From an uncultured Candidatus Berkelbacteria bacterium (GTDB lineage: Bacteria > Patescibacteriota > UBA1384 > UBA12157): a stretch of DNA of 49,205 nucleotides. The notes beneath the pieces are model-generated. The model did no database searches. It was not told the DNA's origin and saw only the letters and a list, made by a program, of their open reading frames with translations. Below, piece after piece: positions 41 to 7,732 of this stretch. Each line of letters begins with the position of its first letter. Position 1 is the stretch's first letter. The translations under genes and the position numbers were made by a program. The DNA is taken from NCBI GenBank assembly GCA_903877885.1, contig CAIRFN010000003.1:1-49205 (forward strand), given 5' to 3'.

Positions 41-1588
41 TCACGATGTTCCGCCAAATGAGATAGGACTTGCTTGCAAGTCCAAAATTGCTCTGTAAAA
101 TGGGCTAATTTGGGTGTTCGAATAGCCGTTTTTACCATATGGCATTCCGGAGGGGAATATCGAACACAAGAGTGTTTGAACCTGTTTAAGCTTTACATCT
201 GGCTCACTTTTCAACGAATCTTCAAACATTTTAGGTAGGTCTGTAAGCTTTGTTTCTACGAATTTATTGATCAATTCCAAATTATATTTCTCAAGAAGTT
301 CGTCGTTCTTGCTAAACTGTATACTCTTTATCTTTTCTTCCAACATACTATTTTGTTCTTTAAAGATCTCATCGGAGTAAATACCCGATAAATTCTTCTC
401 TATAAGCGCCTGACGCAACTCGTACTGCTTTTTTAAGTCGGTATCGGCTAGTTCCCGCCTTTCCTGCAAGTCGGCGGCTCTTTTAAAGTATGTCCGACGC
501 AGAAAGGCGTTAAACAATTTGGCGGCATTATCCTTTACGGAAAAGTCATGCAGCCATTTAACGGTATCGCCAATCAGTTTACTGGTGGTAACATTCGAGC
601 CGTTACATCGATGTCGACAAAAATAATAGCCGAAGTACTCACGTTTTCCTTTGCTTTTGCCGCCGGTGAAAGAAGTCCCGCATATTTTGCATTTAACAAG
701 TCGACGTAGCGGAAAATCAGGATTGTCTCGATGTCTGATAGCCAGCGGCCCCGATACGCTGTGGTTTCGACCGTCCAGAACAGCCTGAACCTGATAAAAA
801 AGTTCCTCAGTCACCATTGGCGGATGCTGGCCTCGAACTTCACGACCGTATTTTTTAGAAACGACATAACCGGCATAGAATTTATTGCGAAACATTCTGT
901 TGACCTGTTGCGGCAACATTCGTCCGCCTTTATGCCTTTGAGCCACACCCTGTTCGGTCAGGACATCAGCAATGTTTCTCAAGGTTTTAGTACCGGTCGC
1001 CATTAAATGCCATGAATCCTCTAGTTTATCAAAGGTTGCCGGATCTTTTGTCGTATAGCCGCTCTGATTGATATAACCCATAGTGACATAACTTGTCAGT
1101 CCGTTTAGGAATCTTGCTTTCAGGCCGTTTTTAGCGCGTTCACTGCGTATATCGTTATCCATCTGTGCAAATCCCGCCAGCATGGTTTCGACGAATTTTT
1201 CGGTCGGACTGTTGCCGGTCGGCTCGGTCGCTGAGATCAATTTGATATCGCATTCGGTCAATTTCCTTCTTATGATCAAATAATCGGAGGTTTGACGTGA
1301 AACGCGATCCAGTCGGTAGACGATGACTGAACCAATCTCCCGCTTGTGTTTTCGGCAATATTCCAGCATTTCAACCAATATCGGTCGCCCCGTGATCGTT
1401 TTGGCCGATCGCCCTTCCTCGCGGAAAACCTGTGTTACGGTCATTCCTCGACGCTCCGCTTCTTTGCGGCAGATGTCCTCTTGAGTCCCGAGCGAATAAT
1501 TTTCAACCTGTTCTTCGGTCGAGACGCGAATATAGACAATCGCTTTATCCGACCGCTGCTCGATTTTGCCCGTTGGTGTAAGTTCCAT
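41..1588 (-). CDS. Large serine recombinase (resolvase + recombinase + zinc-ribbon domains)
   Basis: N-terminal YIRVSTEEQ (catalytic Ser), IVYRLDRVSR, E..IRSERAKNG helix, GQHPPMV recombinase motif, CKICG...CRHRC zinc ribbon, C-terminal coiled coil. SD AAGGAGG upstream. Confidence 0.93.
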   Translation of the reverse strand: MELTPTGKIEQRSDKAIVYIRVSTEEQVENYSLGTQEDICRKEAERRGMTVTQVFREEGRSAKTITGRPILVEMLEYCRKHKREIGSVIVYRLDRVSRQTSDYLIIRRKLTECDIKLISATEPTGNSPTEKFVETMLAGFAQMDNDIRSERAKNGLKARFLNGLTSYVTMGYINQSGYTTKDPATFDKLEDSWHLMATGTKTLRNIADVLTEQGVAQRHKGGRMLPQQVNRMFRNKFYAGYVVSKKYGREVRGQHPPMVTEELFYQVQAVLDGRNHSVSGPLAIRHRDNPDFPLRRLVKCKICGTSFTGGKSKGKREYFGYYFCRHRCNGSNVTTSKLIGDTVKWLHDFSVKDNAAKLFNAFLRRTYFKRAADLQERRELADTDLKKQYELRQALIEKNLSGIYSDEIFKEQNSMLEEKIKSIQFSKNDELLEKYNLELINKFVETKLTDLPKMFEDSLKSEPDVKLKQVQTLLCSIFPSGMPYGKNGYSNTQISPFYRAILDLQASPISFGGTS

Positions 1589-2201: not shown

Positions 2202-3017
2202 ATGACAAACAAAATAACTCCAAAACAAAAACAAATACTCCAATATCTCTATAAATACAAATTCCTAGACAGAAAACAGATCCAACAATTCCTAGATCAC
2301 AAATACCACAAGAGAATCAACGACTGGCTCAAAGACCTAAATCAAAAAGAATATATCAATCGGATATACTCAAACAAATTCGGAGAAAATACCAAACCAG
2401 CAATATACTATCTAGCCTTAAATGGTATCAGGCATTTAAAAGAGCAAAATGAATATCCAATCGAAATACTCCGAAAATTTTACCGGCTCAAAGACCGCTC
2501 AAATGATTTTATCGAGAAGTGTATATTAATTGCTCAGATGGTCCTTGATCTGAAAACAGCCGCAGACAAGAGTCATGACAAGAAAGAGGAAAGTGAACTC
2601 TCGTACCTGATTGCTACCCCTGTGGACTTAGCTAATCCGGATTATCGTTTTAATTTTCTTACCGAGTACAAAGTCGATCTGGTTGTCAAAAGACTCAAAA
2701 CAAAGAAAAGTGGCAAACGAACAAACTCAACCTATTTTCTTTTAACGATTATTGCTCCAACTTTGCCGCGCTATTCGATCAGGCATCAAGTCAAAAAATT
2801 CATCGAACTCTATAATGGCTACGAGTGGGACGATATCAATGAAACCTTCCCTACGATCATGGTTATCTGTCCGACCATCGCTACCATGATTTATACCAAA
2901 CGGATGACGCGGAAACTTCTAGAGGACGAGGATAATCCGAAGGATCTTCATATCCAATTCGCCATGGTTGAGAAAGTCAAAGAATTTGGTGTTACCGGGG
3001 ATATCTGGGAAAAATAA
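2202..3017 (+). CDS. Replication-relaxation (Replic_Relax)-like protein with N-terminal winged HTH
   Basis: ITPKQKQILQYLYKYKFLDRKQIQQFL...RINDWLKDL...YINR...KPAIYYLALNG pattern, size and position next to a serine recombinase fit this family. Recognised by eye. Confidence 0.6.
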   Translation: MTNKITPKQKQILQYLYKYKFLDRKQIQQFLDHKYHKRINDWLKDLNQKEYINRIYSNKFGENTKPAIYYLALNGIRHLKEQNEYPIEILRKFYRLKDRSNDFIEKCILIAQMVLDLKTAADKSHDKKEESELSYLIATPVDLANPDYRFNFLTEYKVDLVVKRLKTKKSGKRTNSTYFLLTIIAPTLPRYSIRHQVKKFIELYNGYEWDDINETFPTIMVICPTIATMIYTKRMTRKLLEDEDNPKDLHIQFAMVEKVKEFGVTGDIWEK

Positions 3018-3092: not shown

Positions 3093-3121
3093 TTGATTTA
3101 TTCTTCTGTTTGTGCTATAAT
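3093..3121 (+). promoter_or_regulatory. Strong sigma70 promoter for DGR target gene 1
   Basis: TTGATT (3093-3098), 17 bp, TATAAT (3116-3121), with extended -10 TG at 3113-3114. Confidence 0.75.
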
Positions 3122-3244: not shown

Positions 3245-4147
3245 ATGATGACGATGTCAGGAACATTGATCACGTCCAGAGACCCCAAGGGCCTTCAGGC
3301 AACCTCTATCTTTGAGGCCGCCTATAATCAGGCTGAACTTGACGGAGATCGTGCACAACGTCTCAATGAGCATGGTGGTGAACTCAAAACCGGCATTCTG
3401 CAACTTATCCAAAAGCTGTCGATGTCGAACCAGTTCGCCAACGAGGAGACCAGCTCCAACTACACCTACCCGAAGGAGTATCACGGCCCGAAACCGATCG
3501 AGGAGCAGATCAAAGCAATTGCCGAGATCTTCGACCTCGATCCGGCCCAGGCGTTTGAATACGCCAAGACCCTGGCCAAACTCCCCGAAGGAGCCGAAGG
3601 ATGGTTTGCCATTCCGTCAGTCAACTCCCTGGCAGCCAAGCATTTCCCTGAAGTAACCGATCCGGCTGAAAAGTATTGCCGGGCAGCCCAACTCGTCATA
3701 GAGAAGCTCGCGGCCTCACGGAAGTTCTACAACTACCGTGAGGGCCAGATCGACCCGCAACATCTGCGGGTTCATTCCCGTACGGCTTATGCGCTCGATC
3801 TGATCGCCCAGGAACAAACGGGCGGCATCCTGATTATCGCAGGCCAACTGGGTATGCGCCATCGCGGCAAGTCCGTTCGTCGGTCACGCGAAGTCTTCGT
3901 GTCGAAGGAATTCGGTCTCGAGGCCGTTGCCGGCGGATCCATCGCCCTAACTCACCCCGAACGCTTCACGCGTTCCGAAGAGCTGGACATGGATTTGGCG
4001 GGTAATGAATGGAGCTGGCGCGCCGATGGCGTCTTCGGCGGCGCCCTGAGCCTCTACTTCAGCGGCGGCGGGGTCGAGCTGGGCACGAGCTACCTTGAGG
4101 ACGTGATTCAGTGCTTCGGTTCTGCTTCCGGCTTCCTCTCGCAGTAA
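3245..4147 (+). CDS. DGR target protein 1 (C-terminal variable region; probable start at ATG 3254)
   Basis: 3' end matches TR except at TR adenines. SD AGGAGG (3239-3244) is 9 nt from ATG 3254. Paralog of 4408..5313. Confidence 0.92.
   Translation: MMTMSGTLITSRDPKGLQATSIFEAAYNQAELDGDRAQRLNEHGGELKTGILQLIQKLSMSNQFANEETSSNYTYPKEYHGPKPIEEQIKAIAEIFDLDPAQAFEYAKTLAKLPEGAEGWFAIPSVNSLAAKHFPEVTDPAEKYCRAAQLVIEKLAASRKFYNYREGQIDPQHLRVHSRTAYALDLIAQEQTGGILIIAGQLGMRHRGKSVRRSREVFVSKEFGLEAVAGGSIALTHPERFTRSEELDMDLAGNEWSWRADGVFGGALSLYFSGGGVELGTSYLEDVIQCFGSASGFLSQ
4015..4141 (+). repeat. DGR variable repeat VR1
   Basis: 127-nt ungapped match to TR with 22 mismatches, all at TR adenines (18 A>G, 3 A>T, 1 A>C). 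Confidence 0.96.
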
Positions 4148-4210
4148 GCCGTGTCCCTTGTGTTTTAAATCCTTGAAACTTTTAGCAACTTACTACTTGT
4201 TACTTGGATT

Positions 4211-4261
4211 CCGCCGTAAGGCGGTCGACTTATATCCTGGGTTACCATATGGTAACCCAGG
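4211..4261 (+). promoter_or_regulatory. Post-VR1 hairpins (candidate DGR target-recognition cruciform plus palindrome or terminator)
   Basis: CCGCC-GTAA-GGCGG (4211-4224) then TCGAC; perfect 26-bp palindrome CCTGGGTTACCAT/ATGGTAACCCAGG (4236-4261). Confidence 0.7.
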
Positions 4262-4407
4262 TATCTTTACCCCTTACCCTGATTTTTTTCTTCATAATAA
4301 ATAATTAAACCGAAAAACTTTCTCTCCAGTTCTTAATTGTTTACCTTATAGGCAGACAGCTAAGACCTAGGGGATTAAACCCTGATGGTACTTTTACAAC
4401 AAAGGAG

Positions 4408-5313
4408 ATGGTTCCGATGTCGAAAACATTGGCCCCGTCAGTCACCACCCGAGACAAAAAAGGTCTCAAATTCATGTCCGTTGTGGACGCCGCCTATAAT
4501 AAGGCCGGTCTCTCTGAGGACGAAGCTCAACGTGTCAACGACACGCCTGGGCTTGGCAATTTGGTTTCTAAGTTCATTGCCGACAGTCGGTTTTCCGACA
4601 AGTACAAGAACGAAGAGACCGAGTCGTCCTGCGTCTATCCCTCCACATACAAAGGCCCCAAGCCGATCGAACAGCAGATCGCGGCAATTGCCGAAATCTA
4701 CGGTCTCGACCCGACCCAGGCGCTGGAATATGTGAAGAACCTGCCGGCATTGCCGGAAGGCGCCGAGGGTTGGTTCGCCGTTCCGTCCGACGAAGCGATC
4801 GCCAAGCTCTTCCCCGACATCGCCGACAAGGCCGAACTGTACTGCGCAATGCTGCGCCTGATTATCAGCAAGATTGCTGCTTCGCGGAAGTTCTACAACT
4901 ACCGCGAAGGCGAGATTGACACCAGGCATCTACGGCAGATCCAACGCACCGCCGAGATGCTGGCCAAAGCGGCCGAAACCCAGCCGGGCGATATCCTGAT
5001 CATCGCCGCCCAATTGGGGCTCCGCCATCGCGGTCGTTCGGTTCGCCGCGCCCGCGAGTGCTTCGTCGCCAACGAGTTCGGGCTTTGCCCCGTGATCGTC
5101 GGCACCATTGCACTGACCCACCCCGAGCGGTTTACAAATTCCAGTGAGCTGGATGTAGACTGCGCTGGCGGAGAGTGGAGCTGGAGCGCCGATGGCGTCT
5201 TCGACTACGCCCTGCTCCTCTTCTTCTACGACGGCGAGGTCAGGCTGGGCACGCGCGGCCTTGAGAGCGTGGATCAGGACTTCGGTTCTGCTTCCGGCTT
5301 CCTCTCGCAGTAA
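4408..5313 (+). CDS. DGR target protein 2 (probable start at ATG 4417)
   Basis: 3' end matches TR except at TR adenines. SD AAGGAG (4402-4407) is 9 nt from ATG 4417. Roughly half of residues identical to target 1 by eye. Confidence 0.92.
   Translation: MVPMSKTLAPSVTTRDKKGLKFMSVVDAAYNKAGLSEDEAQRVNDTPGLGNLVSKFIADSRFSDKYKNEETESSCVYPSTYKGPKPIEQQIAAIAEIYGLDPTQALEYVKNLPALPEGAEGWFAVPSDEAIAKLFPDIADKAELYCAMLRLIISKIAASRKFYNYREGEIDTRHLRQIQRTAEMLAKAAETQPGDILIIAAQLGLRHRGRSVRRARECFVANEFGLCPVIVGTIALTHPERFTNSSELDVDCAGGEWSWSADGVFDYALLLFFYDGEVRLGTRGLESVDQDFGSASGFLSQ
5181..5307 (+). repeat. DGR variable repeat VR2
   Basis: 127-nt ungapped match to TR with 20 mismatches, all at TR adenines (14 A>G, 4 A>T, 2 A>C). 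Confidence 0.96.
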
Positions 5314-5376
5314 GCCGTGTCCCTTGTTCTTTAATCCCTTGAAACTTTTGAATTCTTTTCTCTTGTTTCTTGGGTT

Positions 5377-5390
5377 CCCGCCTTGGCGGG
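5377..5390 (+). promoter_or_regulatory. Post-VR2 hairpin (candidate DGR target-recognition cruciform)
   Basis: CCCGC-CTTG-GCGGG then TCGAC, at the same distance from the stop codon as the VR1 hairpin. Confidence 0.7.
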
Positions 5391-5399
5391 TCGACATAC

Positions 5400-5434
5400 C
5401 CGGGCTATCCTTCAGTGGGTGGCCCGGCTTTTTT
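5400..5434 (+). terminator. Rho-independent terminator after target gene 2
   Basis: 11-bp stem CCGGGCTATCC/GGGTGGCCCGG (two G-U pairs), 6-nt loop, then CTTTTTT. Confidence 0.75.
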
Positions 5435-5721
5435 ATTGCTTTTAAATTCCCGAGTTGATATATTGCAGATGAAAGTAAGCTCATGAACAGACGTCTACGG
5501 ATTTCTGTCGCTGAAATCTCGAATCAAAACCAAGCCGGAATTCCAAAGGTTACGGCTGATGGAAGAGTGCTTATTTGAGGAGATACTGCTTGCTCTTATC
5601 TGGTGCGGGTGTCCGAATAATATCGGGCTGCTGCCAAATAAAATACAGGGATGGGAGTACATAATCCCTTTTGGGAAGTAAAACTCGATTTCCGGTGCCA
5701 AAAGATGGATAAGAGCATTTA

Positions 5722-5848
5722 CTGGAACGCCGATAGCGTCTTCGACAACGCCCTGAACCTCTACTTCAACGACGACAAGGTCAAGCTAGACACGAACAAC
5801 CTTGAGAACGTAAATCAGAACTTCGGTTCTGCTTCCGGCTTCCTCTCG
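5722..5848 (+). repeat. DGR template repeat (TR), presumably expressed as non-coding RNA
   Basis: 34 adenines, with 8 AAC and 1 AAT codons in the target frame. Last 28 nt are adenine-free and identical in both VRs. Lies between the targets and avd/RT. Confidence 0.96.
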
Positions 5849-5862
5849 AAGTCTCTCCTTTT

Positions 5863-5897
5863 AAAAAGACGTTTTACCAAACGTAAGGCGTCTTTTT
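5863..5897 (+). terminator. Hairpin or terminator at the 3' end of the TR RNA, overlapping the avd stop codon
   Basis: 15-bp stem AAAAAGACGTTTTAC/GTAAGGCGTCTTTTT with CAAAC loop. Two G-U pairs work only on the + strand. A-run before and T-run after. Confidence 0.65.
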
Positions 5898-6243
5898 ACT
5901 CTTTAGAAGCTTTAATCCAACCGCCCAACATGCGGCCGATTTCATCGATGTTGGATTCGAATATAGTATAGATTTTGAGATCGATTGCTTTAATATCTTT
6001 CATTAAGCGAACAAAAACTCGAAGCAAACTAATTTTCGAAGCGGTATCTTTTAGGACGGGTAATTTTTCTTCTTTTGACATCTGACTAGCCCTTAAGATA
6101 CCTTCGATAACCTCTAAAAGAGCATTTTCACTCTTTTGAAATAAAGTGTAGCGTTCCTGCTTAGGTATCTTGTTTCTGATCTCATGAAATTGTCGATACA
6201 GGTCGTAAGCCTTTTTAAAGATGGGAATGTCTAATTCTTGCAT
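5896..6243 (-). CDS. avd: DGR accessory variability determinant (Avd)-like four-helix-bundle protein
   Basis: 115 aa, helical, with IFKKAYDL...PKQERYTL...LLRVFVRL..D...EIGRMLGGW signature; sits between TR and RT. Confidence 0.85.
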   Translation of the reverse strand: MQELDIPIFKKAYDLYRQFHEIRNKIPKQERYTLFQKSENALLEVIEGILRASQMSKEEKLPVLKDTASKISLLRVFVRLMKDIKAIDLKIYTIFESNIDEIGRMLGGWIKASKE

Positions 6244-6257
6244 GGGAAACCTTTCGT

Positions 6258-7389
<1,132 letters not shown>

Positions 7390-7513: not shown

Positions 7514-7732
7514 ATGATTATCAAGAAAAATGAAAAAGTGAGAGTTGAGCTGGGCGACAAACTCCGCAAAGCCAGAGAGAAAGCCGGAATGACTCAGGCG
7601 GAAGTTGCTGATCAGGCGGAAATCAATGTCAGCTACTACGCCCAGATCGAACGGGGCGAGGTTAATGTTTCTTTTGATAAACTTCAGAGCATTATAAAAG
7701 TGCTAAAGATCAAATCTTTAGATATTGTTTAG
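7514..7732 (+). CDS. XRE/Cro-C1 family helix-turn-helix transcriptional regulator
   Basis: LGDKLRKAREKAGMTQAEVADQAEINVSYYAQIERGEVNVS is a canonical HTH_3 pattern; 72 aa. Confidence 0.9.
   Translation: MIIKKNEKVRVELGDKLRKAREKAGMTQAEVADQAEINVSYYAQIERGEVNVSFDKLQSIIKVLKIKSLDIV

Follow-up and report, generated by a model that had tools for sequence, protein, structure and literature searches.

Most variable repeats (VRs) of the diversity-generating retroelements (DGRs) in the Candidate Phyla Radiation (CPR, Patescibacteria) have been left in "unknown VR" classes, UVR1-6 in the CPR set, with no conclusion on domain type (Wu 2018, PMC5758913). The targets of CPR clade 2 were subsequently described as typically lacking a transmembrane or any other conserved domain, their genuine non-membrane status was yet to be established, and novel C-Lec variants were predicted in CPR (Roux 2021, PMC8144416). 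Here, a stretch of 49,205 nucleotides (nt) from an uncultured Candidatus Berkelbacteria bacterium (contig CAIRFN010000003.1), termed the window, was analysed. It contains a compact DGR that comprises two paralogous target genes, a template repeat (TR), a minus-strand bAvd gene and a reverse transcriptase (RT) gene. The locus resembles the CPR systems of both surveys in being a cellular CPR DGR with an Avd and RT cassette and targets that lack a transmembrane or recognisable domain; for UVR1-6 the likeness is by description, as the window family is matched to no named UVR class or protein cluster. The window pair is thus an ordinary instance of a known, still unexplained class of CPR targets. 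In our reading, to which we assign a probability of roughly 0.6, the two products are soluble, probably dimeric binders with a lectin fold whose specificity is rewritten by the DGR. What is new is the fold assignment for the family, a predicted dimerisation module, and natural variants of the N-terminus that bear a signal or lack the module. These results address the question posed by the surveys, namely whether the abundant CPR targets are truly non-membrane and which fold holds the VR. The features on which the argument rests are as follows.

3254..4147, plus strand: target gene 1; the open reading frame (ORF) opens at 3245, likely start ATG 3254; ~297 residues (ORF of 300 residues), isoelectric point (pI) 5.4
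3254..3427, plus strand: three-helix module at the N-terminus of target 1 (residues 4-61), the predicted interface of a symmetric homodimer
3560..4144, plus strand: target 1 domain (residues ~106-300) predicted to have a divergent C-type-lectin fold, including the conserved insert 201-247
4014..4144, plus strand: VR1, with its recoded codons at residues 259-290 (4019-4114)
4417..5313, plus strand: target gene 2, paralogue of target 1; ORF opening at 4408, likely start ATG 4417; ~298 residues (ORF of 301 residues)
5180..5310, plus strand: VR2, at the 3' end of target 2
5721..5851, plus strand: TR, with 37 adenines and 10 Asn codons (AAC/AAT)
5896..6243, minus strand: bAvd accessory gene (PF22296, E 5.9e-18)
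6258..7389, plus strand: DGR RT, with RVT_1 in two ORFs in different frames, 6258-6905 and 6958-7389

Described proteins of known structure display clear parallels to the window targets. TvpA of Treponema denticola (PDB 2Y3C) is likewise a DGR target of ~300 residues with an FGE-type C-type-lectin fold and a C-terminal VR, and its DGR also serves several paralogous targets. TvpA is an exported lipoprotein. It belongs to the Pfam family FGE-sulfatase, whereas the window family does not, and the structural alignment shows 4% sequence identity. Mtd, the tropism determinant of Bordetella phage BPP-1 (PDB 1YU2), shares the C-terminal C-type-lectin fold of ~125 residues with a VR in the last ~45 residues, and it likewise oligomerises through its N-terminal part. 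In contrast, Mtd forms a phage tail-fibre trimer, while the window targets stand in no phage context and are predicted to dimerise through a three-helix module; the tail motif is G-F-R in Mtd and G-F-L in the window targets. The closest structural match is the C-terminal domain of Bd2740, a Bdellovibrio fibre tip (PDB 8OKS; PMC10769870), described as a trimeric adhesin tip with a calcium-free C-type-lectin fold and likened to Mtd, the sole homologue that matched it in assembly. Bd2740 differs in that it is not a DGR target and is displayed on a long trimeric surface fibre, with 8% identity. In the DGR-diversified conflict-system sensors, which are linked to STAND or other NTPases (PMC10907252), the NTPase or effector is fused or adjacent; neither arrangement was found at this locus.

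Both genes are genuine DGR targets. This status is not in doubt because every mismatch between VR and TR sits on a TR adenine: over 131 nt the count is 24/24 for VR1 (hypergeometric p 3e-17) and 22/22 for VR2 (p 2e-15). Together with the adjoining Avd and RT genes, these mismatches bear out the claim of an earlier note, made from the sequence alone, that the two ~300-residue products are DGR targets. The VR constitutes the 3' end of the ORF (residues 259-299 of 300), and its final 38 nt, which have a putative homing-signal role, are the same in VR1, VR2 and TR. Within residues 259-290, 17 residues depart from the TR reading in VR1, VR2 or both. The recoded residues alternate on a predicted β-hairpin (strands 266-273 and 276-283) and occupy the loop that precedes the last strand, a pattern expected for one displayed face. 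The starts at 3254 and 4417 are considered likely because AGGAGG/AAGGAG boxes lie 9-11 nt ahead of both ATG codons and the family alignment has a nearly invariant Met at position 4, in agreement with the coordinates given in the earlier note; no in-frame start codon was identified upstream of either target.

The two target proteins are 59% identical (E 4e-125). Alignment of both confirmed all of the invariant blocks that had been pointed out before (LPEGAEGWFA, AASRKFYNYREG, QLG.RHRG.SVRR.RE.F and LTHPERF) as well as the shared GSASGFLSQ end. The end had been presented as unlike the G-F-R tail of many CLec/FGE-type targets; it is present as described, and it is a variant of the G-F-R tail that keeps G-F, not different in kind. 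Scans of both proteins against Pfam, NCBIfam, PHROG and PADLOC revealed no family at E<=1 beyond chance-level rows, and a Pfam scan of 90 aligned relatives assigned 0/90 to a family at E<=1, FGE-sulfatase (PF03781), DUF1566 and Lectin_C included. Sequence search of the PDB, with a single protein or with the family profile, returned nothing better than E 1.2, and the ESM Atlas contributed only unnamed clusters of the same kind. The PDB row at E 1.2 relates the segment EFGL...LTHPER...L (residues 220-254; 3902-4006) to the PhoB/OmpR winged helix over a 35-residue alignment to helices 1 and 2; this likeness is attributed to chance because the model puts the segment in a different context.

No hydrophobic N-terminus, membrane helix or signal peptide was identified by a hydropathy scan of either protein, a check based on a simple hydropathy window and not on a trained signal-peptide predictor, and the earlier description of the targets as lacking both a signal peptide and a transmembrane helix thus stands. 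The sole window above a Kyte-Doolittle value of 1.6 is the conserved segment FV.NEFGL....G...L, which is probably buried because it forms a strand and a helix in the model. Both targets are acidic, with a pI of 5.1-5.4 and a net charge of about -8 to -9, and acidic residues are as many as basic residues in the RHRG.SVRR segment. The suggestion that this patch may bind nucleic acid was therefore abandoned, the proteins being acidic and the segment charge-balanced.

The targets are members of a very large family that has no Pfam entry and was found here only in Patescibacteria. A word-indexed search recovered at least 1,949 relatives of ~300 residues, and an exhaustive search (E<=1e-3) yielded 1,428 clusters at 50% identity; all named members belong to Patescibacteria (Wolfebacteria, Pacebacteria, Kaiserbacteria, Vogelbacteria and others). 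When the phylum was sampled evenly, the family turned up in 41/401 genomes spread across many families, and the classic DGR scaffold, Pfam FGE-sulfatase, was identified in 11/201 sampled genomes. The genome from which the window derives (1.0 Mb, 13 contigs, 99% complete) contains no family copies other than the two targets and the TR. The order target-TR-Avd(minus)-RT(plus) was also observed beside 11 of 20 relatives; no other gene than Avd and RT recurs as a neighbour at the 20 related loci. Fused long forms of 526-2000 residues were not detected, which constitutes weak evidence. Ten genomes have no RT beside their copy, and in five of these, near-complete at 99-100% (genomes G145, G026, G101, G260 and G317, corresponding to loci L034, L035, L044, L048 and L043), the query used detected no DGR RT; the family thus keeps intact members even where a mutator is absent. 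In the five near-complete genomes the copies count as orphan or fossil targets whose reading frames have stayed open.

Family conservation peaks at residues 190-255 (Q.GDI....Q.G..H.G.S..RA....EFGL.....L.HP.R), rather than in the VR scaffold, and this stretch contains a highly conserved insert at residues 201-247 (QLG.RHRG.SVRR...EFGL...LTHPER). An AlphaFold2 model built from the 90-sequence alignment has a mean predicted local distance difference test score (pLDDT) of 96.4 and a predicted template-modelling score (pTM) of 0.90. Foldseek searches of PDB and BFVD with this model gave no match at E<=1e-3. When the model was compared by VIA-align with 48,161 representative chains, proteins with a C-type-lectin fold filled nearly all of the 50 top-ranked rows for residues 106-300. 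They include the C-terminal domain of Bd2740 (Z 7.1 and root mean square deviation (rmsd) 3.2 over 107/111 residues), CarF (Z 5.8), the C-terminal domain of Legionella Lcl (Z 5.7), TvpA (Z 5.6 and rmsd 3.6 over 130 residues), PvdO (Z 5.6) and an FGE paralogue (Z 5.2), and further rows hold EgtB and SenA along with C-type lectin domains of animals by the dozen; the FGE-like enzymes score between Z 4.8 and 5.6. Mtd was recovered on re-examination of the Foldseek candidates (Z 4.2 and rmsd 3.4 over 115 residues). A divergent C-type-lectin fold of the Mtd/TvpA/FGE kind, without a calcium site, is accepted for residues ~106-300 of the model, at the level of the fold, because the list of matches is homogeneous and contains both archetypal DGR variable proteins. 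The earlier note, which saw no recognisable domain, was correct for sequence, where no family matches, and is superseded for structure, where the pLDDT-96 model displays the fold; the question it had put, whether the C-terminus is a C-type lectin fold, is answered in the affirmative by model and structure search. Neither sequence searches nor Foldseek gave a confident match to any known family of secreted or phage receptor-binding proteins, the outcome named there as speaking against its reading. A relation to FGE-sulfatase through A..YA..LP.GAEGW and A.AYA.W.GKRLPTEAEW, the sole piece aligned by hhalign, was rejected as not significant.

The model places three helices at residues ~4-61. When two copies were submitted to complex prediction the score was 0.75, compared with 0.00 for the best of three controls; this mark is reached by 20/30 proteins solved as one-chain pairs and by 1/23 solved as single chains (rough counts, own alignment used). 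The complex runs share at least 86% of their contacts, the partner pLDDT is at least 89, and the interface comprises residues 6-61 of both copies. The module is thus predicted to pair two chains as a symmetric homodimer, which the model supports and does not show. Folded alone, the module reached a pLDDT of 76, and a structure search with it returned mixed helical hairpins (best Z 4.6 at rmsd 10.6), giving no assignment. It is divergent in sequence and constant in length, with a median of 73 residues ahead of the conserved YP..Y.GP motif. The module is optional, since ~11% of relatives lack it and begin just ahead of YP..Y.GP. In 4/361 relatives a Sec signal peptide (P0250, P0254 and P0271) or an N-terminal membrane helix (P0359) replaces the module, and all four retain every conserved core motif; in rare lineages, then, the core domain can function extracellularly. 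P0254 and P0271 share one contig of 2,954 nt.

These elements suggest how the two genes, as paralogous variable proteins of one DGR, would operate. In each protein the N-terminal module (~4-61) would dimerise, and the core (~60-300) would end in the C-type-lectin fold, the last ~45 residues being copied from the TR by an error-prone reverse transcriptase. Up to ~17-23 positions could be recoded at TR adenines, mostly alternate residues of the β-hairpin and the loop that follows, while the interleaved constant VR residues would keep the scaffold. The product would most likely be a soluble, bivalent ligand-binding protein with rewritable specificity, and two paralogues would provide two independent specificities off one template. 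Its action would be plain ligand binding or cross-linking, either in the cytoplasm or after non-classical release. The family would thereby have a testable picture, consisting of a divergent lectin scaffold, a separable bivalency module and rare replacements of that module by a signal or anchor. The wider issue is the site and mode of action of the most common hypervariable proteins in ultra-small bacteria.

Several observations weigh against this picture of a soluble dimeric binder. The Z values are middling (best 7.1, most 4-6), and the tool warns that values below 8 may reflect a common arrangement only. The absence of Foldseek matches at E<=1e-3 in PDB and BFVD counts on the same side, as does hhalign of the family against eight CPR FGE-sulfatase domains, with a probability of 0.9%. 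Exposure of the recoded residues on one surface is a putative feature, suggested by their alternation. The dimer is a prediction alone, and ~11% of relatives do without the module. The four signal- or anchor-bearing relatives of 361 weaken the cytoplasmic lean set out below. Finally, the main contigs of four lake-water runs do not differ from the window across the two genes, VRs included, only one sequence is on record for each target protein, found on 18 or 19 contigs, and diversification may currently be switched off.

The last point rests on the VRs being identical across the runs, on the single recorded sequences and on the RT being out of frame. The RT frame is broken in an insertion of ~80 nt that contains a (GA)n run (near 6846-6880) and a hairpin, whereas related RTs (such as that of locus L038) are one ORF with just 18 nt between the two matched parts. 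Contigs from all four lake-water runs break at 6837-6886. The four runs belong to one study, three of them possibly from the source sample, and since contigs cannot reveal rare variants and break at repeats, the identity of the VRs neither proves nor excludes activity. Contigs of low depth in two runs (X1 and X3; depth 3-4 compared with ~20) join the region after target 1 to that after target 2 (window 4076-5389), with skips of 1,260 and 1,166 nt. Such joins could represent a minor one-target variant that arose when the duplicated segments after the VRs recombined, or else another organism's related element.

With regard to location, the genome encodes SecY. We lean, at odds little better than even, towards the cytoplasm or a non-classical exit, because SecY is present but no Sec signal, no fused or neighbouring effector, no sign of type VII export and no disulphide pair were identified. 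The placement of the targets inside the cell by the earlier note is likely, given that ~99% of relatives are signal-less though SecY is present, but the 4/361 relatives with a signal or anchor in place of the module keep it from being certain. DGR targets of episymbiotic CPR bacteria are usually proposed to act as adhesins. A possible alternative, clearly less probable than the soluble binder, is thus an extracellular or surface adhesin that leaves the cell without a Sec signal and uses its variable lectin face to bind host-cell or particle surfaces. Structurally the best matches (Bd2740, Lcl, Mtd and TvpA) serve as tips for adhesion or receptor binding, the Sec signals or membrane anchor of the 4/361 relatives stand exactly at the place of the module, and a bivalent dimer would suit avidity binding. 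This contrasts with the lack of a signal in both window proteins and in ~99% of the relatives examined, despite the presence of SecY, and with the lack of a conserved neighbour that could act as an exporter and of a conserved disulphide pair. Type VII-like export by way of the helical module was considered and dropped, as the genome has no WXG100 protein and a single, ordinary single-domain FtsK. A rather unlikely proposal, somewhat behind the adhesin, is that the products act as cytoplasmic, effector-free, dimeric "intracellular antibodies" with a hypervariable lectin fold, neutralising or cross-linking invading or host-derived molecules, in which case the paralogues might heterodimerise and combine two specificities.

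That the targets are cytoplasmic sensors of phages or other invaders, whose hypervariable face recognises phage proteins and triggers a defence, had been raised in the earlier note and appears improbable. The proteins are signal-less and hypervariable and are encoded on a mobile island with a recombinase, and cytoplasmic DGR-diversified sensors have been proposed in other bacteria, but CPR DGRs are set apart from the conflict-system clades in the same work (PMC10907252). The targets are neither fused nor adjacent to an effector domain such as an NTPase, kinase or protease, no fused forms were found, PADLOC gave no match, and only Avd and RT are conserved as neighbours across 21 loci. Single-gene relatives persist, moreover, in the five near-complete genomes in which no DGR RT was found, and the anti-phage suggestion is accordingly unsupported. 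Still more improbable is a core of the FGE/EgtB enzyme type in which the VR would tune a substrate pocket instead of a pure binding surface. The structural rows of the FGE paralogue, EgtB, SenA and PvdO (Z 4.8-5.6) point in that direction, together with the polar cluster of highest conservation (Q201, H206, G208, S210, E222, H237 and R240), which is adjacent in sequence to the VR strands. A relation to FGE-sulfatase is nevertheless absent by sequence and by profile, the conserved cysteine pair of the FGE kind is missing, and TvpA, itself an FGE-type DGR protein, is without such activity (PMC5758913). The soluble, probably dimeric binder remains our preferred reading of the two targets.

The cassette lies inside an island of 44-51% GC within a window of 33% GC. 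A serine recombinase and a Replic_Relax protein are its neighbours on the island, and the remaining features of the locus are the following.

41-1588, minus strand: large serine recombinase, flanking the DGR in the GC-rich island
2202-3017: Replic_Relax protein, flanking the DGR in the GC-rich island
3093..3121, plus strand: promoter-like site 5' of target 1 (TTGATT-17-TATAAT with TG)
4236..4261, plus strand: terminator-like hairpin 3' of target 1; a second one lies 3' of target 2 (5400-5427)
7514-7732: small HTH_3 protein, flanking the DGR in the GC-rich island

A serine recombinase was also observed within ~8 kb of the cassette at related loci L039 and L047, and an HTH protein again at L041. 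The target genes themselves have a GC content of 57-59%, with 67-74% at third codon positions (GC3), compared with 38% in the cassette's own RT and 35% elsewhere in the window. The excess extends across the family (median of 56.5% against 45% in the flanks), copies in genomes without a found RT included. It is not specific to adenine because A and T are depleted equally.

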